Virus record (IMG/VR): IMGVR_UViG_3300026235_000001
Span: 1-39,959 of that record
Length of the DNA stretch: 39,959 bases
From: a virus
Direction: 5' to 3' (one strand)
The notes under the pieces: generated by a model
The model's database searches: none
Seen by the model: the letters and a program-made list of their open reading frames with translations, nothing else
What the model was told of the DNA's origin: nothing
Translations under genes and position numbers: made by a program
In this document: piece after piece, positions 696 through 36,439 of the stretch
How positions within the stretch are numbered: position 1 is the stretch's first letter
Layout of the letters: each line of letters starts with the position of its first letter

Positions 696-2540
696 ATGAA
701 ATCTTTTAACACTCAAACAACTTCAAAACCTAGCTACGTTAAAACTAAAGCCTACGGGCTTTGCGGCACGCTCGCACTTGCCACAGCTCTACTTATTGGA
801 GCTGGTGCAGTATCAGCGGATGAAACTACTGAAACAGTGGTAGACACTCAACCAACTGTTGCTAATGTATATACAGCAGATAATGCGGGTAATGTTACAG
901 TAACACCATCTGAAACTGCGACACCAATGGAAACTCCAGCACCGGTTGAAGCTCAACCTATTGCGGAAACTCCAGCTCCTGTCGTGGAAAATACAGTAGC
1001 AGCTACAGAAGCACCAGCTGCACCTACTACAGTCACTAAACAAGGTGACACGATCAATGTCGAAAACCCTAATGTTGATGTTACTTTCCCGAATGGTACA
1101 GGTAAATATAGCTCGTTTAATGTGGAATACAAAGATATCAACATCCCAGATGATATCGCAGTTAATGAGGGCGACAAGGTAACCTTTGACTTGCCTGAAG
1201 AAGTAAAATTCCAAACTTCTTACGAGTTTGATGTACATAACCCTGAAAATGCAGTTGTTGGTAAAGCTACAGCGGATGCTACCACTAACAAGGTGACAAC
1301 TGTATTCAATGACTATTTCAAATCACACCCTTTGAATAAGATCATGAACTTGAAACTAGATGCAAGCTGGACGGACAAAGTTGAAAGCGGTAAACCAGTA
1401 AATGTTAATTTTAACGGTACAGTCGTATCTGCAACTATCGGCAAAGAACAAGTCATCGGTAAAGATGAGTTGCTTGCAAAATGGGGATTTCAAGACAAAG
1501 AAGACCCTACTGTGATTAACTGGACTGCTCGTGTCAATTACGCTCACCGTATTTTGAACCATGTCACAATCATTGACGAAATGAGCGATAACCAAAAGCT
1601 AGTAGATGATTACTTTGAAATCAAGAACATTGAAAGTTTAGATCCTTGGATTGACAAAGGTTCCGCTATGGACTTAGTTAAGTCTATCTCAAAATCTGAG
1701 CATGGTTTTGAAATCAAAATGGACCGTTTAGACCACATGATTTATCTATACTACAAAACTAAACTCGTAAACGCTGTTAAGGACTCAACTAATCCAACTA
1801 ACAAAATTGAGCTTAAAGCTGAAAATGATGGTTCTGTTGCATATCAAAAAATTCAGCTTGTCGGTGGCCGTGGTGATGCGTCTGGTGAGAACAAGCCTGA
1901 ACCAACATTTGAAATTCCTCGTGAAGCTCCAAAAGTTGGAATCCCTGAATTTAACGGTGGCATTCCGGGTATTCCTGAAGAACGTGTAAAACCAGAATAT
2001 ACTGAGCCAATCGGAACAGTACCGAACGAAGCGCCAGTTTTGGATAAACCAGAGTGGAACGGTGGAACAGTACCGTTCGACGCTCCGAAATACGATAAGC
2101 CCGAATGGAACGGGGGCGTTATTCCTAATGATGCGCCACAGTATGATAAACCCGAATGGCATGGCGGAACAACTCCATTCGATGCACCAAGCATTGATAA
2201 ACCTGAATGGTCAGGCGGTGTCGTACCTAATGAAGCTCCAATCCTCGATAAACCTGAGTTGATTATCGAGATTCCTGAAGAACCAGTTAAACCAACTACG
2301 CCATCAGAAAACACCCCTAACAAGCCCGCAACACCTCGTGAAGATAAAGAGGTACAAACTACCACAGTTACTTACAAACTCGAATCTGAGCCAAAACAAG
2401 TGGCAAATACGCCAGTTTATAAAGCCGCACTTCCTAACACTGGTGAAAAAGAAGGAATTGCTAGCACTTTAGGACTTGTAGTCATTGCAGCAGGTATCAC
2501 AGCACTAACTCTTGGATTTAAGGAATATAACGAAAAATAA
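696..2540 (+). CDS. LPXTG cell-wall-anchored surface protein with a Cna/Ace-type collagen-binding-like A domain
   Basis: SD aaggag. Signal peptide ending ...IGAGAVSADE. A-domain motifs: NEGDKVTFDLPEEV, VVGKATADATTNKVTTVFNDYF, INWTARVNY, VTIIDEMSDNQKL. Four 17-aa DKPEWxGGxxPxxAPxx repeats (2043-2246). LPNTG (2430-2444) is followed by a hydrophobic helix and a KEYNEK tail. Confidence 0.85.
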   Translation: MKSFNTQTTSKPSYVKTKAYGLCGTLALATALLIGAGAVSADETTETVVDTQPTVANVYTADNAGNVTVTPSETATPMETPAPVEAQPIAETPAPVVENTVAATEAPAAPTTVTKQGDTINVENPNVDVTFPNGTGKYSSFNVEYKDINIPDDIAVNEGDKVTFDLPEEVKFQTSYEFDVHNPENAVVGKATADATTNKVTTVFNDYFKSHPLNKIMNLKLDASWTDKVESGKPVNVNFNGTVVSATIGKEQVIGKDELLAKWGFQDKEDPTVINWTARVNYAHRILNHVTIIDEMSDNQKLVDDYFEIKNIESLDPWIDKGSAMDLVKSISKSEHGFEIKMDRLDHMIYLYYKTKLVNAVKDSTNPTNKIELKAENDGSVAYQKIQLVGGRGDASGENKPEPTFEIPREAPKVGIPEFNGGIPGIPEERVKPEYTEPIGTVPNEAPVLDKPEWNGGTVPFDAPKYDKPEWNGGVIPNDAPQYDKPEWHGGTTPFDAPSIDKPEWSGGVVPNEAPILDKPELIIEIPEEPVKPTTPSENTPNKPATPREDKEVQTTTVTYKLESEPKQVANTPVYKAALPNTGEKEGIASTLGLVVIAAGITALTLGFKEYNEK

Positions 2541-7792: not shown

Positions 7793-8037
7793 ACAAACGA
7801 CAACAAAAGAAATCAGTAATGAGAAATGTATCTAAACTTTATGATATGGCTTTCGAGCGAGAGCGTTTTAGAAGAGATGTAGCTATTATTTGTGGTAGAG
7901 GTCCAAGAAATACAAGAGTGCTTACGACAATGGCGGTTAAGAGAGCTGTGTACGAATACGCCCCATTCGAAGCCGTTGAAATAACATTAGAGGGATATAT
8001 CGCAGACCGCCAAGTGATACAGGAGCGTGAGTCATGA
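7789..8037 (+). CDS. Hypothetical protein
   Basis: 82-aa ORF with overlapping start and stop codons on both sides. Confidence 0.5.
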   Translation: MNKRQQKKSVMRNVSKLYDMAFERERFRRDVAIICGRGPRNTRVLTTMAVKRAVYEYAPFEAVEITLEGYIADRQVIQERES

Positions 8038-8744
8038 GCAAAAACTACAAATATTCAGGACTAACACCAGAATTACATCAACGGCTGGTCAGTGAACATG
8101 AAGCGCTGAAAAAAGCACACAAAAAAGGCTCCTATAAGCAGTTTTTTCAAGATGTGAAACAGTGCGATGAGTTACAAGCTCGCATCATTTATCAAGCATT
8201 TAATAGTGCAGTCATGGAGCGTCAGAGAATCTCACCTCGAACAGTTGATAGACTAGAAGGCATCATTTCTGATGAACTGTTCAACGACCTTCAAGATTAT
8301 CTGTCTACGCACTATACAAGGGGTAAAACCACACGCCCATTGTTGGATAAAACCAACGCAGGACTGCCAGAAGGACTGTTTAAACGGTTCAAAGAGGAAG
8401 TGGAAGAACTACGCAAGGGGCACCCTAACAATCTAAATAGCTATATTAGAGAGGTTAAAGGGTGCGACCAAAAGCAAGCTAACAATACCCAAAGCGCCCT
8501 CAATAGTTGCTATTCAGAAAAAGCTGCACTAACGCCTTTGAAGGCTATTCAAATGGAAGGGCTACTTTCAAGAGGGCTATTCAGCGAAATCATTGATTAC
8601 GTTTTCAATAACTACGAGTGGTCTGAAAGGTTGAACGATGAAGTTGAACGCATTATTCTTAAATATCGGACTAGGGGCAAAGTTGGACGTAATAAAATAA
8701 CTGTAAGAAAAGCCTTATATAAAGCCTATGCGCTAGGCGTGTAG
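8034..8744 (+). CDS. Hypothetical protein with an internal two-fold duplication
   Basis: aa 8-95 and 108-195 align (GL.PEL..R..E.E.L.K.H...VK.CD..QA...A.NS...EG..S..LF....DY). It is the last early ORF. Confidence 0.55.
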   Translation: MSKNYKYSGLTPELHQRLVSEHEALKKAHKKGSYKQFFQDVKQCDELQARIIYQAFNSAVMERQRISPRTVDRLEGIISDELFNDLQDYLSTHYTRGKTTRPLLDKTNAGLPEGLFKRFKEEVEELRKGHPNNLNSYIREVKGCDQKQANNTQSALNSCYSEKAALTPLKAIQMEGLLSRGLFSEIIDYVFNNYEWSERLNDEVERIILKYRTRGKVGRNKITVRKALYKAYALGV

Positions 8745-8916
8745 CTAGAACGGTTTACGAGGGTTCGACTCCCTTGCTAGCTATTACCAGTCAATCTATA
8801 TACGGAAAAGAGGAATCCTTTTGTATTTTTTCATTCAAATCAGCGGAAGCGTGACTGGTCGTGGATGCACCAAAATCCAGTAAATTTAAATATAGAAAAG
8901 AGGAATCTCCTTTTTT
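8744..8916 (+). ncRNA. Structured element, unit 1: tRNA-like acceptor/T-arm minihelix + 8-bp long-range helix + hairpins + T-run
   Basis: Acceptor-like stem gctag 8744-8748/ctagc 8777-8781. T-arm gaggg-TTCGACT-ccctt 8759-8775. Long-range helix accagtca 8786-8793/tgactggt 8852-8859. Hairpin aaaagagga-atc-tcctttttt 8896-8916. Confidence 0.55.
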
Positions 8917-9085
8917 ACACTTTATGACAAATCTAAAGCGTATTACTGGTGGCGTGATTATTCAAGGCTTTATGCCTGCAAACTTAATTAGATATAGGTC
9001 AGAAATCTCCATAATTCACCGACTTAATTCTTGTATTATTTCAAAAAAAGGAGGAAAACCTCCAAAATGATTTCACTATATCTAG

Positions 9086-9270
9086 GCTGGAGTGGTTACT
9101 CAAGGGGTTCGATTCCTCTTGCCAGCTATTGTCTGTCAAAACACTAAAAATAAAATGGATATAGGTTTTTAGTGGCTTGGACACTTTTTCGACACCGGGC
9201 AAGCTGACAGACCTTGTCCAACAAAACCCAGCAAATTTAAGAAAAAAGGATGTGAAAAAGCCTCTTTCTT
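9086..9270 (+). ncRNA. Structured element, unit 2 (diverged paralog of unit 1)
   Basis: Acceptor-like stem gctgg 9086-9090/ccagc 9122-9126. T-arm agggg-TTCGATT-cctct 9103-9119. Long-range helix gtctgtca 9131-9138/tgacagac 9205-9212. Inner hairpins 9142-9150/9166-9174 and 9175-9179/9200-9204. All helix differences from unit 1 are compensatory. Confidence 0.55.
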
Positions 9271-9471
9271 ATTGATATCTTGCATTACAAAAAAAGCCAA
9301 AGATCTTGCTGGTGTCTTGGCTAGAAAGGAGGTGATAAAAGGCCCAAGAACAAATACATCAATCTTTTCATAAATCTCTTAATGTTTCTAGGGCTAAAAT
9401 AAAAAAGACCGACACAATGGCCGGCACTCTTTGAACACGATACAACTATTATATCACACAAGAGGGGTGTC

Positions 9472-9921
9472 ATGGCAAGTATCAATCTATTTGCGGAAGT
9501 AGATAAAACCGCAACTAAAAAGAAAGCTATAAAGGTGCTAAGAAGGTATCGCATGCTAACACGGATAGCGGGCTTGGAATACGCCCCTAAAGTGACAGCT
9601 TCGTTCTCGTTAGAACCCAAGTCATTCGACGGCATGGTCCACAGTCAAACCGAAAGCATGGTAACACGCAAGGTGGCCGCTGAACAAGACTTACAAGCTA
9701 TCGTTAGAGCTATCAACGCATTATCAGATAGGCATTACAGCCAAATTTTGATAGAGTGTTATTGCAGAAATCGCAAGCAGTACAACATTGAAGTCTATAT
9801 GGACCTTGGATATTCTGAAAGCGAATACTACCGAATGAGAGAATTAGCCATTTTAGAGTTTGCCGAGAACTACAGAAGCGGTGAATGTCTGGTATTTTCA
9901 GGAGATTATTGCGAAGAATAA
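9472..9921 (+). CDS. ArpU-family late transcriptional regulator
   Basis: N-terminus LFAEVDKTATKKKAIKVLRRYRMLTRIAG and C-terminal YSESEYYRMRELAILEFAENY; positioned directly upstream of terS. Confidence 0.7.
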   Translation: MASINLFAEVDKTATKKKAIKVLRRYRMLTRIAGLEYAPKVTASFSLEPKSFDGMVHSQTESMVTRKVAAEQDLQAIVRAINALSDRHYSQILIECYCRNRKQYNIEVYMDLGYSESEYYRMRELAILEFAENYRSGECLVFSGDYCEE

Positions 9922-30371: not shown

Positions 30372-30644
30372 ATGAGTAAATTACACGATTTCGCCCAAGC
30401 CGTTGGTGCAGATATCAAAGAAATTAAAGATAAACAATCGTCATCATTGTCTATCAGCCAAGCGTATGGGTTGTTCCCAACTTACAATAACTTTTTTCTA
30501 CAGGTTTTAGAACAAAATAAATTTGCGGAAGACCCGCTTGTAACAAAGTCTCAATTACCCACAAGCGAAATTGACGCTTTAAAACAGAAGGTCGAAGAGT
30601 TGGAAAAAACTATCTCGGAAATTAAACAGGCTATTCAAAAATAA
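30372..30644 (+). CDS. Hypothetical protein, N-terminal paralog of the preceding ORF
   Basis: The first 19 aa are identical to those of ORF 30059. Confidence 0.5.
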   Translation: MSKLHDFAQAVGADIKEIKDKQSSSLSISQAYGLFPTYNNFFLQVLEQNKFAEDPLVTKSQLPTSEIDALKQKVEELEKTISEIKQAIQK

Positions 30645-30662: not shown

Positions 30663-30749
30663 ATGGCAACAGATAATGACATTATCTTATTTGCAGAAAA
30701 TCTAGCTGACGCTGGTGTCGGTACTGATGCAGATGGAAGTTGGGGAACT
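30663..30749 (+). CDS. Endolysin exon 1 (MATDNDIILFAENLADAGVGTDADGSWGT)
   Basis: SD aaggagg. The exon ends at a U that pairs as G-U with an internal guide sequence; an in-frame TAA follows immediately in the intron. Confidence 0.75.
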
Positions 30750-31792
30750 TAACAAACTGGGTTCCTAATCCCGAGAATTGCTGGGACACCCTGAAGCTAT
30801 GAAGGCTACAACGCAACCGGTAACGGTAAACGTGACACGCTTAAAAACATTCATAGTTGGGCAATCAGCAGCCGAGCCTCCTTGGTAAAAGAGGAGGAAG
30901 GTTCAACGACTAAGTGCTTGCAATCGCAAGACAGCACGGGACGTTTGTGGTATAATGGAGTTAGACGACAAAGGAGGGCTAACCCATGCAGACGATTGAA
31001 AATAAAGAGATTGGCGTTACTTTCAATTATTTAAAATTGCTAAAAATATCTGGCAAAGATAAAAACGGGAAGAAACTTGGGATATTCAAATGTACTTTGT
31101 GCGGAAATGAAAAAGAAATGAGGATAACCGAAGTAAGGAACGGATATTCAAAATCTTGTGGGTGTCTTTCAAAACTCAAAAACAAAGAAAGACTGAAAAA
31201 GCACGGGCTGACTGGAACGAAAACCCATAGCGCTTGGAAAGCGATGCGACAAAGATGCACAAATCCAAACTATTCAAGTTTTCACCGATACGGCGGCCGT
31301 GGTATAACTTATGCTGATGAATGGGAAGACTTCTCCCAGTTCTATAAAGACATGGGAGAACCGCCTTCTAGCAAGCATCAACTGGACAGAATAGACAATA
31401 ATGGGAACTACTGCAAAGAAAATTGCAGATGGGCTCTACCTCAAGAAAACTGCAATAATAGAGGTGTTTACAAAAATAAAACTGGTTACACCGGCGTTAG
31501 TGAAAATACTAGCAAGGCTGGTCGGTATTCGTCTTATTTTTGTGTAAATAGAAAACATATCCAAGTTGGAACTTTCTCAACTCCAGAAGAAGCATACAAA
31601 GCCAGAATTGAAGCGATAAAAAAATACAATAAAGAAAATAATGCCAACTTAAAATATATAGAATTCGAAGAATGTCACAAAACGAAGATATAGTCTCATC
31701 TTACGTGAAAGCGTAAGCTCATAAAAGAGGGAGCACGTTATACAGTCAATCCAAGAAATTGTTTTGAGGAGAGACGTGCTTTTAAGATAATG
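30750..31792 (+). mobile_element. Group I intron interrupting the lysin gene
   Basis: P1: exon GGAACU (30744-30749) pairs with GGUUCC (30760-30765), ending in U-G. The terminal G is at 31792. Joining the exons restores the CHAP motif GSWGT|QCVDLPN. The intron contains an HNH ORF and several GC stems. Confidence 0.75.
30986..31693 (+). CDS. Intron-encoded HNH homing endonuclease with a C-terminal AP2-like DNA-binding domain
   Basis: HQLDRIDNNGNYCKENCRWALPQENCNNR (HNH). GYTGVS...GRYSSYF...IQVGTFSTPEEAYKARIEAI (AP2-like). It has its own TGGTATAAT box at 30948-30956. Confidence 0.8.
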   Translation: MQTIENKEIGVTFNYLKLLKISGKDKNGKKLGIFKCTLCGNEKEMRITEVRNGYSKSCGCLSKLKNKERLKKHGLTGTKTHSAWKAMRQRCTNPNYSSFHRYGGRGITYADEWEDFSQFYKDMGEPPSSKHQLDRIDNNGNYCKENCRWALPQENCNNRGVYKNKTGYTGVSENTSKAGRYSSYFCVNRKHIQVGTFSTPEEAYKARIEAIKKYNKENNANLKYIEFEECHKTKI

Positions 31793-34407: not shown

Positions 34408-35847
34408 CTATAATTTCCATAAAATAACGATGATTTCACTAGTAACTCTGACCTTGCTTATCAAGGCGCGTGCTATGGCTTTCTGTTGCTCGTAGTCAAG
34501 TGTGAAGATATCCTTGGTGTCAAGTACCCGTTTAATGTCTTCCTTTCGTTCTACGACTTTAACAGAGCTGTCAGCGTCTAGCTCTTTTTCAAGAGTTGTT
34601 CTTTCTGCCATGAAGTCGCTTGACCGTTTTTGTAATTCCTCTAGTGAAATCCTATCGTCGATGTATAGATCATTAAGCCTGCTAATTTTAGCGGTCAGAT
34701 TATCAATCTGTTTCTGGTAGCTATCGCGGTCTATGGTCTCTTGATTTGTGTTTGAAAATAGCTTGTCGATATAATCTGAATCAGTTTGTAGTTTGCTGAT
34801 TTCAGTTAGGATGAAGTGCTCTATATCGTCTTTGAAATAGAACCCAGAATCACACTTTGCATTGTTGTTATAAACAGTCACGCCCTTTGTCTTTCGTGGA
34901 TGCCGCTGCTTACACTCGTATTTAACTAAGCGTGTGCCGTCTTTCCGTATCATACCCAGTTTTATAGCAAGAGGGGCTGAACAATAGCCGCATTGAGCTA
35001 TACCAGAAAGCATGTATTTAGCTTGAAACGGTCTAGGGTTGAAACGCTGGGCGGCTGTTCTTTGTCTTGTCTTAATTTCCTCTTGCGTCTTGTTAAAATC
35101 TTCTTCGGAAATGATAGGCTCATGAGTGCCGGGGAATATCTGACCCTTAAATTGATTATATCCGCAATAGACTGGGTTGGACAGGATAACCCTAACTGTC
35201 CTATAGTTCCACTCTTTATCTTGTCCATATTGCTCATTGAGTGCGTCTCTAAGCTTGGTTATCGACATCCCCGATAAATACCATTCGAACATTTTTCGGA
35301 CGATTAGGGCTTGATATGGATTGACCGAGAGCGTGCCAGTTTCTTTGATGTAATCATAACCAAACGATGTCTTGGCCCACTGCATCGACTTGCCGGACTT
35401 TGCCCGCCCTAGCTTGCCTAATTGCATCCGTTCCTTGATTTGTTCCCTTTCGAACTCAGCTATTGCAGATAAAAGAGTTAGGAATAAAGTACCCATGGCA
35501 GAAGACGTGTCTATATTTTCTTGGATAGATACAAAATCAATTTTATTTATATTAAACACATCTTTAATCAAATAAAGCGTATCTCTTACGTTTCGTGATA
35601 ACCTATCGAGTTTGTAAACTAAAACTGTGTCAAACAAACCGTGTTTCACATCGTTAATCAAGTTTGTCATTTCAGGACGATTCAAACTACCGCCAGAGAA
35701 ACCGGCGTCAATATACTTGTTATAAACATCCCACCCCATAGCTTCACAATACTTCTCTAAGCTGTCAATTTGCCCGTCTATGGAATATCCTTCCTCAGCT
35801 TGATTCGTGGTGCTCACTCGTGCATATATGGCGACTTTCCTAATCAT
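34408..35847 (-). CDS. int: Large serine recombinase (TP901-1-type integrase)
   Basis: MIRKVAIYARVSTTNQAEEGYSIDGQ (catalytic Ser), VYKLDRLSRNVRDTLYL, GKLGRAKSGKS, PRPFQAKYMLSG and a Cys-rich zinc ribbon. Start at ATG 35847 (SD gggggtga) overlaps the HNH stop. Confidence 0.9.
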   Translation of the reverse strand: MIRKVAIYARVSTTNQAEEGYSIDGQIDSLEKYCEAMGWDVYNKYIDAGFSGGSLNRPEMTNLINDVKHGLFDTVLVYKLDRLSRNVRDTLYLIKDVFNINKIDFVSIQENIDTSSAMGTLFLTLLSAIAEFEREQIKERMQLGKLGRAKSGKSMQWAKTSFGYDYIKETGTLSVNPYQALIVRKMFEWYLSGMSITKLRDALNEQYGQDKEWNYRTVRVILSNPVYCGYNQFKGQIFPGTHEPIISEEDFNKTQEEIKTRQRTAAQRFNPRPFQAKYMLSGIAQCGYCSAPLAIKLGMIRKDGTRLVKYECKQRHPRKTKGVTVYNNNAKCDSGFYFKDDIEHFILTEISKLQTDSDYIDKLFSNTNQETIDRDSYQKQIDNLTAKISRLNDLYIDDRISLEELQKRSSDFMAERTTLEKELDADSSVKVVERKEDIKRVLDTKDIFTLDYEQQKAIARALISKVRVTSEIIVILWKL

Positions 35848-36439
35848 TCGAGTCACCCCCGCATTCAGAATACTTCCAAGCAAAACCGCCAGCCTTTTTT
35901 CTTGTACCTTTGCAGCACATTGAAATACAAGAAAGGTTAATTTTCAGAGTTTTACTAGCATCCGTCATGCTGTTCCACTCTTTTACCACATTCCCGTCTA
36001 GGTCCATTTGCAGAACCTTTTTATTACTATTTTTTCCAAGCGCCCTAATAGTGTCGATTTGAGACTGCTGCACGGATTTTAACCCAGTTTTAAATGCGTG
36101 TTTAGCATTTTCGCTAGCAGAAACCCACTCTAAATTATCAACAGCATTATTGGTTTTATTACCATCAATATGGTTTACTTGCGTCTTCGTTTTTGTGTCT
36201 GGATTGTCAATAAAACAAGTAGCAACAAGTCTATGAACGAAGTAATGTTTCGGTTTTCCGTTTTTAGTGAGCGCCACGGTGTGATACCCAAATTGCGTAA
36301 GTTTCTTTTTCAAAACTCTGCCTTTCAACAATCGGAAACCGTCCCATTTTGGCACAACTTTGTCTAAGCTTCTAACATTTCCTAAATCGCTAACTTCGTA
36401 TAGACCTTCGTAACCTACAACTTTTTTCCATTTTTCCAT
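35840..36439 (-). CDS. Free-standing HNH homing endonuclease (NUMOD4 + HNH_3 + NUMOD1-like)
   Basis: WKKVVGYEGLYEVSDLGNVRS (NUMOD4). HRLVATCFIDNP...VNHIDGNKTNNAVDNLEWVSASEN (HNH). C-terminal MTDASKTLKINLSCISMCCKG. Start taken at ATG 36439 (SD ggagtg). Confidence 0.8.
   Translation of the reverse strand: MEKWKKVVGYEGLYEVSDLGNVRSLDKVVPKWDGFRLLKGRVLKKKLTQFGYHTVALTKNGKPKHYFVHRLVATCFIDNPDTKTKTQVNHIDGNKTNNAVDNLEWVSASENAKHAFKTGLKSVQQSQIDTIRALGKNSNKKVLQMDLDGNVVKEWNSMTDASKTLKINLSCISMCCKGTRKKAGGFAWKYSECGGDSND

Follow-up and report, generated by a model that had tools for sequence, protein, structure and literature searches.

The viral record IMGVR_UViG_3300026235_000001, analysed here over its whole length of 39,959 nucleotides (nt; hereafter the window), is that of a temperate Streptococcus phage belonging to the S. 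salivarius / S. thermophilus group. Its nearest deposited genome is that of the S. salivarius phage SA-TP2, with 84.6% identity over the region considered here, and the remaining DNA matches are all Streptococcus phages. Positions 8745 to 9471 form the largest stretch of the window without an open reading frame (ORF) of at least 75 amino acids, as an earlier note on this DNA had pointed out. This gap is preceded by the last early gene, encoding a DUF1340 protein (8034-8744, plus strand; PF07067, 258 bits; phrog_1814), and followed by the gene for a late transcriptional activator of the ArpU family (9472-9921, plus strand; TIGR01637, 121.7 bits versus a cut-off of 43.1; phrog_248), the presumed regulated target, 3' of which lie the genes for the small terminase, the large terminase and the portal protein. 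Comparison with related phages shows that the gap encodes a conserved plus-strand RNA with a predicted fold, held at a fixed regulatory position. By the same sequence comparisons, this RNA is a member of a conserved and modular family of S. thermophilus and S. salivarius phages (Aliceevansviridae), and two tandem units of it are present in the window. In each unit, a tRNA-like minihelix is followed by two modules in which a short box is complementary to the loop of a downstream hairpin.

Relatives were collected with the DUF1340 protein as anchor, which retrieved 80 IMG/VR contigs of S. salivarius-type phages; a second search, led by the protein of phage 7201, gave 80 more contigs of S. thermophilus-type and intermediate phages, and the annotated records of SA-TP2, CHPC869 (Brussowvirus), 5093 (Vansinderenvirus), 7201 and Abc2 (Moineauvirus) and YMC-2011 were added. 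The architecture between DUF1340 and the late-activator gene is kept in about 160 related loci, including those of S. salivarius phages and of all four S. thermophilus phage genera sampled. The late activator is ArpU in pac-type phages and LtrB/DUF1492 in cos-type phages (PMC5601072), and the element precedes both types. Among the species representatives of GTDB a single locus was found, in a metagenome-assembled genome of Streptococcus sp., and the RNA family is taxonomically narrow.

In nearly all relatives, as seen in the first 80 contigs, the T-arm motif of the minihelix stands at a fixed offset from the DUF1340 stop codon. The element begins at or in this codon, with TTCGANT in 39 of 46 unique junctions and the single-base loop variants TTCAACT or CTCGATT in four of the other seven. 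An imprecise-excision scar, which had been considered as an origin of the units, is unlikely in view of this fixed offset and of base pairs that are kept through compensatory changes. The loci hold one or two units, in single-unit, two-unit and chimaeric arrangements, and the unit junctions lie inside repeated motifs (minihelix-minihelix, CCAGU-CCAGU, or a duplicated CTTGTAG end of DUF1340 before second units). The parts kept across loci are the T arm, the boxes, the hairpin loops and Shine-Dalgarno (SD)-like sequences. Some relatives carry inserts of about 1 kb in the leader, either between DUF1340 and the first minihelix (locus L061, 3209-4209) or after the first unit (locus L102, 2330-2900).

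The two units of the window share 113 identical positions and align with a score of 127, compared to 38.6 ± 9.4 for shuffled sequences, i.e. about nine standard deviations above. Their homology had been recognised in the earlier note, and the minihelices, the long-range helices and the conserved block all lie at the coordinates given there; the ends of the units were set too short, and each unit reaches about 60-80 nt further. Unit 1 opens with minihelix A (8742-8783, plus strand). The first three bases of its acceptor-like stem (8742-8748 / 8777-8783, 7 bp) are the TAG stop codon of DUF1340, which agrees with the proposal that unit 1 starts at the stop of the last early ORF. The stem is followed by a 9-nt linker (AACGGTTTA, 8749-8757) and a T stem of 6 bp (8758-8763 / 8771-8776), which is closed by the T loop TTCGACT (8764-8770). 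Minihelix B of unit 2 (9085-9127, plus strand) consists of an acceptor-like stem of 6 bp (9085-9090 / 9122-9127), a 10-nt linker (AGTGGTTACT, 9091-9100), a T stem of 7 bp (9101-9107 / 9115-9121) and the T loop TTCGATT (9108-9114). Both were delineated from the sequence and the minimum-free-energy fold, and in both of them 13 bp stack coaxially. The acceptor-like stems had been given as 5 bp; they are present, but really comprise 7 bp in unit 1 and 6 bp in unit 2. The T-arm motif GGTTCGANTCC occurs twice in the window versus 0.05 expected occurrences, and none of 100 shuffled sequences contained it twice.

The description of these structures as a tRNA lacking its D and anticodon arms proved apt. 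In the linkers found among relatives (AACGGUUUA, AGUGGUUACU, AAUGGUUGUA), a GG is invariant or nearly so and, with the surrounding A-R-Y-G-G-U-U, recalls a stemless D loop. At the junction with DUF1340, the T loop occurs as UUCGACU, UUCGAUU, UUCGAAU, UUCAACU and CUCGAUU, and all of these variants but CUCGAUU fit the tRNA consensus UUCRANY. At the sequence level, the minihelix therefore carries the signature of the tRNA elbow, a UUCRANY T loop together with a GG able to pair with positions 55/56, and this tertiary contact is predicted. It likewise has the continuous acceptor and T stack and the 7-nt T loop of a tRNA-type minihelix, but with 13 bp instead of the 12 bp found in tRNA. No encoded CCA follows the discriminator position of the minihelix stem in the window sequence.

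The 13-bp stack is complete in 67 of 98 unique minihelices and at least 12 pairs are formed in 91 of them, whereas the same fit placed at random yields 7 pairs in the median and 12 or more in just 11 of 3000 trials. Acceptor stems as different as GCTAG/CTAGC, GCCAG/CTGGC, GGCTGG/CCAGTC, GACGGG/CCCGTC and GGCGAG/CTCGTC are all paired, as are the T-stem variants CGAGGG/CCCTTG, TGAGGG/CCCTCA, GACGG/CCGTC and TCATGGG/CCCGTGG, and compensatory changes are present in both acceptor and T stems. Class A and class B were compared in sets restricted beforehand to minihelices with 12 or 13 of the 13 pairs, a filter that excluded about 7% of the copies. Pairing amounts to 99.2% in class B (n = 20), where both partners have changed in five pairs and the covariation score of 0.306, versus 0.175 after shuffling, is reached by 0 of 500 shuffles; in class A (n = 33), it amounts to 96.7%, with four pairs changed on both sides. 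A covariance model built solely from class-B sequences scores minihelix A with 28.8 bits (E = 9e-5). Judged by these substitution patterns, the minihelix is under selection.

The first copy in S. thermophilus phages is a T-arm hairpin of 6-7 bp that contains the stop codon (TAG-YGG or TGA-GGG) and in some of them is without an obvious acceptor stem. The T-arm hairpin is the only universal part of the minihelix. These bare T-arm hairpins weaken, as a general explanation, the earlier suggestion that the minihelix is a handle for RNase P, RNase Z or the CCA enzyme by which an RNA of about 130 nt would be released. In three loci of S. thermophilus phages (L084, 1262-1304; L083, 1199-1241; L002, 1335-1377), a possible 5' acceptor strand and a GGG-containing linker are found within the last nine DUF1340 codons (…AISMGL*). 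If so, RNA and protein constraints would overlap in this segment, and the acceptor strand is not separable from the coding constraint.

The second part of each unit is a box (GUCUGUCA or ACCAGUCA) whose complement forms the invariant loop of HP1, a covarying hairpin. In unit 2, box 1 (GTCTGTCA, 9131-9138, plus strand) is invariant across the family and finds its partner TGACAGAC at 9205-9212, within HP1 (9197-9219, plus strand), which combines a covarying stem (9197-9203 / 9213-9219) with the invariant 9-nt loop CTGACAGAC. In unit 1, box 1 (ACCAGTCA, 8786-8793, plus strand) complements 8852-8859, the loop TGACTGGT of a short hairpin with the stem GCG / CGT (8849-8862, plus strand). The long-range helices 8786-8793 / 8852-8859 and 9131-9138 / 9205-9212 had been described in exactly this form, including three differences between them that are all compensated. 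Box 1 and its loop thus form a helix of 8 nt that exists in two forms, differing at three compensated positions. Assignment of the unit-1 helix to the box 2 / HP2 type described below, with which it has a CCAGU:ACUGG core in common, was rejected because pairwise alignment puts it at box 1, and on this sequence evidence it is treated here as a second form of box 1.

In the family form, the box GUCUGUC(A) is invariant and HP1 follows about 35-110 nt downstream. The stems of HP1 vary freely (GGACAAG/CUUGUCC, GAGCAAG/CUUGCUC, GUCGAG/CUCGAC, GCAUCG/CGAUGC) around an invariant loop of 9 nt, C-UGACAGAC, the exact complement of box 1; two loop variants in which A is replaced by G would form U.G pairs with the box. 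In relatives with the unit-1 type, the complementarity is CCAGUC:GACUGG, or CCAGUC:GGCUGG with one U.G pair, and the stems flanking the loop again covary (CAAAG/CTTTG, CCAAAGC/GCTTTGG, CAAGGC/GCTTTG). Box 1 and HP1 are separated by an interior of about 35 to 110 nt, which may contain an optional hairpin and one to three ACACUUUUU repeats, direct repeats of the type ACACTTTTTnrAC that are present in 1-3 copies. In the window, the optional hairpin is found in unit 2 (CACTAAAAAT / GTTTTTAGTG, with a loop of variable length; 9142-9174, plus strand) and is absent from many relatives; unit 1 has at this place a weak A/U-rich hairpin with the SD-like sequence AAGAGGAAUC, followed by a U run, which fails the terminator scan (8803-8832, plus strand). 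A further inner helix, 9175-9179 / 9200-9204, had been assigned to the main fold of unit 2. This assignment could not be upheld: the helix shows no compensatory change and overlaps the covarying 5' strand of HP1, whose loop provides the 3' strand of the long-range helix and which competes with it. At best, the inner helix represents an alternative conformer.

The third part of each unit is box 2 (CCAGYAA), which is complementary to the loop of a second hairpin, HP2 (UURCUGG), located about 60-85 nt downstream and built on variable stems. Box 2 lies within the conserved block that had been noticed downstream of the long-range helices (8871-8889 in unit 1, with box 2 CCAGTAA at 8877-8883; 9222-9240 in unit 2, with box 2 CCAGCAA at 9228-9234; both plus strand). 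The block is indeed present and kept in relatives, but it does not stand alone, as it pairs with the hairpin loops 8943-8949 and 9306-9312, which had been missed. The loop of HP2 in unit 1 (8938-8955, plus strand; stem GCGT / GCGT, loop ATTACTGGTG) offers TTACTGG (8943-8949) to box 2, and that in unit 2 (9295-9322, plus strand; stem AGCCAAAGA / TCTTGGCT, loop TCTTGCTGGTG) offers TTGCTGG (9306-9312), such that the two units of the window differ by a compensated change. At this Y:R position, 80 unique combinations of box 2 and HP2 loop comprise 38 C-G, 34 U-A and 8 U.G pairs and not a single C.A. The stretch from box 2 to HP2 holds an SD-like sequence and a U-rich tract; in the window, these are an A/U-rich hairpin with a second copy of the SD-like AAGAGGAAUC and a U run in unit 1 (8896-8916, plus strand) and an A/U-rich hairpin with the SD-like AAAAAGGAUGUGA in unit 2 (9240-9270, plus strand). 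In locus L118 (2205-2400), both the CCAGYAAAU box and the UURCUGG loop sequence are lost while a hairpin is kept at the position of HP2; their loss together fits a partnership of box 2 and the HP2 loop.

Single-sequence folding energies of the units are only modestly below those of shuffled sequences (z = -1.9 and -1.8), and the case for structure therefore rests on comparison. In an alignment of 58 units, covering five helices from the T arm to HP2, 94.3% of the cells are paired, compared to 27-46% when the partner strands are slid against each other, and the covariation score of 0.238 (0.113 after shuffling) is reached by 0 of 500 shuffles. Pairs changed on both sides amount to 5/6 in HP1, 3/5 in the T stem and 5/9 in HP2. 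RNAalifold, to which no structure had been supplied, returns the T arm and HP1, so that HP1 is supported by anchored pair counts, by double-sided changes and by an independent prediction. Compensatory changes across relatives in the minihelix, HP1, HP2 and the second box-loop pairing substantiate the selection on RNA structure that had been proposed from the two copies of the window. The RNA motifs are invariant between phages whose flanking DUF1340 proteins share only 47% identity. In the T stem and the helices S2, HP1 and S3, 57 G.U cells are found versus 15 A.C cells; because of this asymmetry and because covarying stems surround invariant loops, the sequences argue for a plus-strand RNA rather than a site in duplex DNA.

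Downstream of the last unit, the leader contains the SD-like sequence AGAAAGGAGGTGAT (9323-9336, plus strand), a 14-nt complement of the 16S rRNA 3' end without a start codon behind it. With a predicted duplex energy of -22.9 kcal/mol, calculated against the consensus Firmicutes-type 16S end, it is the strongest anti-SD-pairing site of the window. This sequence, AGAAAGGAGGUGAU (9323-9336), is located immediately 3' of HP2 of the last unit, and the longest ORF behind it has 13 codons. Relatives keep GGAGGTGATAA or GGGGGTGGTAAAT at the corresponding position, and GGAGGUGAUAA or GGGGGUGGUAAAU occurs there and likewise between units. SD-like sequences reach a density of 11 per kb in the gap versus 3.4 per kb elsewhere, with four weaker orphan sites besides 9323-9336. 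The distal part of the ArpU leader (9327-9456, plus strand) shares about 80% identity with S. thermophilus phages of the 5093, 987 and pac groups, and a long hairpin, GGCCCAAGAAC … GUUUCUAGGGCU, was read by eye within it (about 9341-9395, plus strand).

A scan for intrinsic terminators between 8400 and 9800 found no plus-strand site in the gap, and all four of its calls were on the minus strand. One of them is GCCGGCCATTGTGTCGGT followed by a T run, just upstream of the activator gene (9400-9425, minus strand), which is well formed on this strand only, as its G.U pairs correspond to A.C mismatches on the plus strand; in relatives, hairpins of unrelated sequence occupy this position in unchanged orientation. 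Another is an A run with a GGAGG-AAAA-CCTCC hairpin (9040-9063), which is called as a minus-strand terminator and on the plus strand would be an SD-like sequence sequestered in a hairpin. These two minus-strand terminators are located where all genes are on the plus strand, and their sequences suggest that an antisense transcript crosses the start of the activator gene. The gap does hold weak A/U hairpins with U runs, as well as competing helices, none of which passes the plus-strand terminator scan. A unit that is a stand-alone RNA of about 175 nt with its own terminator is not supported, since no plus-strand terminator was called in the gap and the element continues into the leader of the activator gene.

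Known RNA classes do not account for the gap. ARAGORN, run on the whole window, detected no tRNA genes and no transfer-messenger RNA (tmRNA), in line with the expectation that no true tRNA would be called, and the Rfam tRNA model RF00005 gave no match on 8600-9600 even at E <= 10. As a positive control, the same tools do detect a true tRNA-Ile in the Lactobacillus delbrueckii phage Ldl1 (ARAGORN; RF00005, 50.5 bits). Models for tmRNA, including the two-piece form, align no more than the bare T arm of 17-18 nt (7.4 and 10.4 bits versus gathering scores of 47 and 84). At the gathering threshold, the sole Rfam match in the whole window is a group I intron at 30682-31037; at E <= 10, no ROOL, GOLLD, Y-RNA-like or riboswitch match appears in the gap. 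Membership in ROOL, GOLLD, tmRNA or Y-RNA-like classes, which had been raised as a possibility, is not supported by any Rfam family match. The matches that do appear in the gap at relaxed threshold (ncr982, SdsR and a CRISPR direct repeat) were rejected as chance level. Literature searches found no paper that mentions DUF1340 and no description of this non-coding region in the survey of S. thermophilus phage genomes, in the transcriptome papers on phage 2972 or in searches for tRNA-like or minihelix phage RNAs. The gap RNA is a new RNA family made from known kinds of parts, namely a tRNA-like minihelix, loop-to-strand pairings and an orphan SD-like sequence, and the folded RNA is apparently undescribed so far.

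A second, unrelated phage lineage was reached via a weak BLAST match in phage Ldl1 (NC_026609, 66389-67595; locus L169, 3890-5096, minus strand). Here, a 1.2-kb gap without ORFs contains a true tRNA-Ile(UAU) and then three minihelices of like design, with a 6-bp acceptor-like stem, a GG-containing linker of 12-16 nt, a T stem of 5-6 bp and the loop UUCGAUU, each followed by a hairpin. Consensus-like promoter sequences, read by eye, precede the Ldl1 minihelices. The class-B covariance model scores copy 4 with 24.9 bits (E = 8e-4) and copies 2 and 3 with 14 bits (E ~0.4); it matches all three minihelices over the full length of the model and the true tRNA through the T arm only. In the phage collection, no relatives of this array were found besides Ldl1 itself. 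By its sequence, the Ldl1 array hints at a wider class of minihelices.

In the Streptococcus phages, the RNA is most simply understood as an intercistronic leader inside the early transcript, immediately upstream of the late-activator gene. This reading draws on three observations. In the minimal forms of S. thermophilus phages, the T-arm hairpin overlaps the DUF1340 stop codon and leaves no room for a promoter; no plus-strand terminator was found in the gap; and the promoter map of phage 2972, obtained by terminator exonuclease (TEX) RNA-seq, shows early and middle primary promoters only, with the ArpU gene in the early cluster (PMC11551762). On the model of phage 2972, the element would belong to the transcript of the early operon. 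In that phage, early RNA is present at 0-5 min and middle/late RNA at about 15 min (PMC11551762, PMC13575424). We give about an even chance to the view that the RNA is a cis-acting intercistronic leader that controls processing, stability or read-through of the late-activator message, by a mechanism that we infer from its parts.

According to this proposal, the leader would act in cis to provide post-transcriptional control and timing of the late activator. The box-loop pairings would set the state of the leader, which is either closed into pseudoknots or open. The tRNA-like handle and the hairpins may serve as entry points for an endonuclease (RNase P, RNase Z or RNase III), whose cuts would separate the activator message from the early mRNA; 30S subunits could be recruited by the orphan SD-like sequence and shield the new 5' end from 5'-3' decay. 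In combination, these steps would determine the rate at which the activator accumulates, and hence the onset of late-gene expression. Because the minihelix overlaps the DUF1340 stop codon, a terminating ribosome would have to unfold it, and its folding or processing could thereby be coupled to translation of the early message. Tandem units might have an additive effect.

Several observations weigh against the cis-acting leader. Every functional step in it, i.e. processing, 30S binding and the regulatory outcome, is an inference. The A/U-rich hairpins with U runs fail the terminator scan, and attenuation is thus not demonstrated. S. thermophilus phages that have the T arm alone do not fit a universal RNase P or RNase Z handle, and the Ldl1 minihelices beside a tRNA resemble independent small RNAs more than a leader. 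Within each form, the box 1-loop pairing is invariant on both strands, which could reflect binding of a protein or of a partner in trans instead of pairing in cis. The HP1 loop leaves one unpaired nucleotide besides the eight that pair, so that box-loop pairing and the HP1 stem may be alternatives and not a pseudoknot. Finally, the neighbouring DUF1340 protein offered no functional hint.

Instead, the minihelices could give rise to separate, processed small RNAs that work in trans. In this case, the minihelix would be excised by RNase P and RNase Z, with or without the downstream hairpins, and the product would mimic the acceptor and elbow of tRNA. It might act as a decoy that diverts or soaks up defence toxins targeting tRNA, such as enzymes modifying or cleaving the acceptor end; RNase P, RNase Z, the CCA-adding enzyme, EF-Tu or enzymes that modify the T loop might also be titrated by it. 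The retention of tRNA tertiary signatures (the invariant GG linker and the UUCRANY T loop) is what this explanation would predict, and it gains from Ldl1, with its three minihelices beside tRNA-Ile, the promoter-like sequences read by eye, and a copy 4 that the class-B model recognises over its full length while recognising the true tRNA by the T arm only. Nevertheless, we consider it rather unlikely for the Streptococcus phages. Without an anticodon arm, anticodon nucleases would not be decoyed; no CCA is encoded at the right place after the stem; and in some S. thermophilus phages, the T-arm hairpin occurs alone. Moreover, the box-loop modules and the orphan SD-like sequence are equally conserved and not explained by a decoy, and the constant neighbours in Streptococcus phages point to a role in cis.

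A riboswitch-like or factor-sensing transcription attenuator would keep the RNA in cis, but let the T-loop module and the pseudoknots sense a small molecule, a factor that binds tRNA or a phage protein, for instance DUF1340. Exclusive pairings (box 1-loop versus the HP1 stem, and GCUUG/CAAGC versus HP1) would then set read-through at the U-rich tracts. Mutually exclusive helices do surround HP1, each unit has weak hairpins followed by U runs, some riboswitches typically come in tandem, and the linkage to the DUF1340 gene is tight. Against this stand the terminator scan, which found no plus-strand terminator, the lack of an Rfam riboswitch match and the GCUUG/CAAGC helix, which shows no compensatory change. 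The interval from box 1 to HP1 is highly variable in both length and content, unlike a ligand pocket, and the DUF1340 model has no recognisable RNA-binding fold. We therefore regard such an attenuator as improbable.

The inverted repeats could also act as DNA, for example as an origin of replication, a signal for single-strand initiation, an array of protein-binding sites or a hot spot of recombination at a module boundary. The region is a recombination hot spot, with single-unit, two-unit and chimaeric arrangements and junctions in repeated motifs, and both the direct repeats ACACTTTTTnrAC, in 1-3 copies, and the invariance of the box 1 / loop repeat on both strands would be compatible with a DNA site. 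However, the stems covary while the loops are fixed, the pairing of box 2 with its loop allows U.G and never C.A, and G.U exceeds A.C about four-fold. The junction T-loop variants, all but CUCGAUU, fit the tRNA consensus, which we regard as unexpected for a DNA site, and in the stretch of the 7201 record that was examined, a cos site about 1.3 kb downstream of the element is the only such feature and no origin is annotated. A DNA-level element is accordingly a very improbable explanation. That the minihelices are decaying, functionless tRNA pseudogenes was already disfavoured and is hardly credible: they do look like a tRNA stripped of its D stem, its anticodon arm and its variable region, with a linker, AGUGGUUA, similar to a typical D loop, and phages often carry tRNA genes at such positions, but 13 pairs are kept by compensatory changes over about 100 distinct copies, and the motifs are more conserved than the flanking protein genes.

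The individual parts of the RNA have counterparts in several known systems. RNase P, RNase Z and the CCA-adding enzyme are known to act on acceptor/T-arm minihelices. The phage minihelix shares the coaxial acceptor-like and T stems and the T loop UUCGAYU with tRNA minihelices and with tRNA-like domains such as that of tmRNA, mascRNA and the viral tRNA-like structures, and the unpaired, GG-containing D-loop-like linker without D stem is also present in the tRNA-like domain of tmRNA. In contrast to these, it has 13 instead of 12 bp, is without an anticodon arm, a linker-T arm helix and an encoded CCA, lies inside an mRNA leader of a double-stranded DNA (dsDNA) phage where it overlaps a stop codon, and escapes ARAGORN and the Rfam tRNA and tmRNA models except for the bare T-arm fragment. 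The T4 species 1 and 2 RNAs are tRNA-like, non-decoding small RNAs that are encoded beside phage tRNA genes. The Ldl1 array resembles this arrangement; the Streptococcus version differs in being fused to a regulatory leader.

The C4 RNA of P1 and P7 and the CI RNA of P4 are encoded in leaders and trimmed by RNase P at a tRNA-like stem, and their loops pair with boxes in the same transcript, thereby controlling a downstream regulator. The phage element has in common with them a short structured RNA in a leader, hairpin loops complementary to boxes of the same transcript (found here in both modules), a tRNA-like stem and a key regulator downstream. It differs by the absence of any sequence or Rfam relationship, a Gram-positive host, boxes upstream of the loops, a full T arm and its occurrence in virulent as well as temperate phages; release by RNase P and repression would follow by analogy only. 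A different parallel is provided by STAB-SD of cryIIIA in Bacillus thuringiensis and the polypurine 5' stabilizer of phage SP82, where a bound 30S subunit protects a processed 5' end in Firmicutes. The SP82 stabilizer is located just downstream of an endonuclease site in an early phage transcript. The sequence at 9323-9336 likewise is an SD-like sequence in a long leader, with extended 16S complementarity and without a start codon, but here it is embedded in a much larger conserved structure, and stabilisation by 30S subunits can be suggested by analogy. Processive antitermination RNAs, such as HK022 put and EAR, are also cis-acting folded leader RNAs with hairpins and pseudoknots, upstream of U-rich tracts or weak hairpins. 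Unlike the phage element, put and EAR RNAs are without a T-loop minihelix; the phage element shows no similarity to any Rfam family and no strong terminators are evident downstream of it.

Phages of S. thermophilus are the main biological threat to yoghurt and cheese fermentations and served as a model for the discovery of CRISPR immunity, yet the timing from early to late transcription in these phages is still not understood. A structured RNA upstream of the activator gene is an obvious candidate for the early-late delay of the 2972 type. The RNA is more conserved than the flanking protein genes and is found in every sampled genus of the group; it would add a natural acceptor/T-arm minihelix to the catalogue of tRNA mimics, is suited to Rfam-style curation and provides a highly conserved non-coding target for phage detection or CRISPR typing. 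It is possible rather than probable that phages of lactic acid bacteria encode an unrecognised class of natural tRNA minihelix RNAs processed by the host tRNA machinery, which would be fused to box-loop modules as an RNA timer of the late activator in Streptococcus phages and be free-standing small RNAs in phages such as Ldl1; if so, dsDNA phages would possess a developmental switch that is based on a tRNA mimic.

The DUF1340 protein has 4048 homologues, and among the matches listed, all 120 carry PF07067; it has no sequence match in PDB and none in NCBIfam. Its AlphaFold model (predicted local distance difference test, pLDDT, 67.6) consists of two similar all-helical repeats of about 85 amino acids (residues 12-93 and 113-193) and a disordered C-terminal tail. 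A Foldseek search with this model gave no match at E <= 0.001, and no recognisable RNA-binding fold was seen in it. The small ORFs of the gap (8861-9070, 9031-9147 and 9321-9635 on the minus strand) were set aside; neither 8861-9070 nor 9321-9635 matches a PHROG, and relatives do not keep the start codon of 8861-9070. Other genomic targets of the loops and boxes in the window are limited to chance-level 8-mers.

Elsewhere in the window, a large serine recombinase with Resolvase, Recombinase and zinc ribbon domains (34408-35883, minus strand) is the integrase candidate, and since it is a serine recombinase, the minihelices are not part of the tRNA attachment site of a tyrosine integrase. An ORF encoding 614 amino acids with bacterial Ig (Big_8) and collagen-binding domains (696-2540, plus strand) adjoins the phage early genes and represents either a moron or host DNA from the flank. 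A lysin gene split by a group I intron is known from S. thermophilus phages. The group I catalytic intron of the window (30682-31037, plus strand; RF00028, 51.8 bits versus a gathering score of 50) lies between ORFs 30372-30644 and 30986-31693 and, by analogy with those phages, probably splits the lysin gene.

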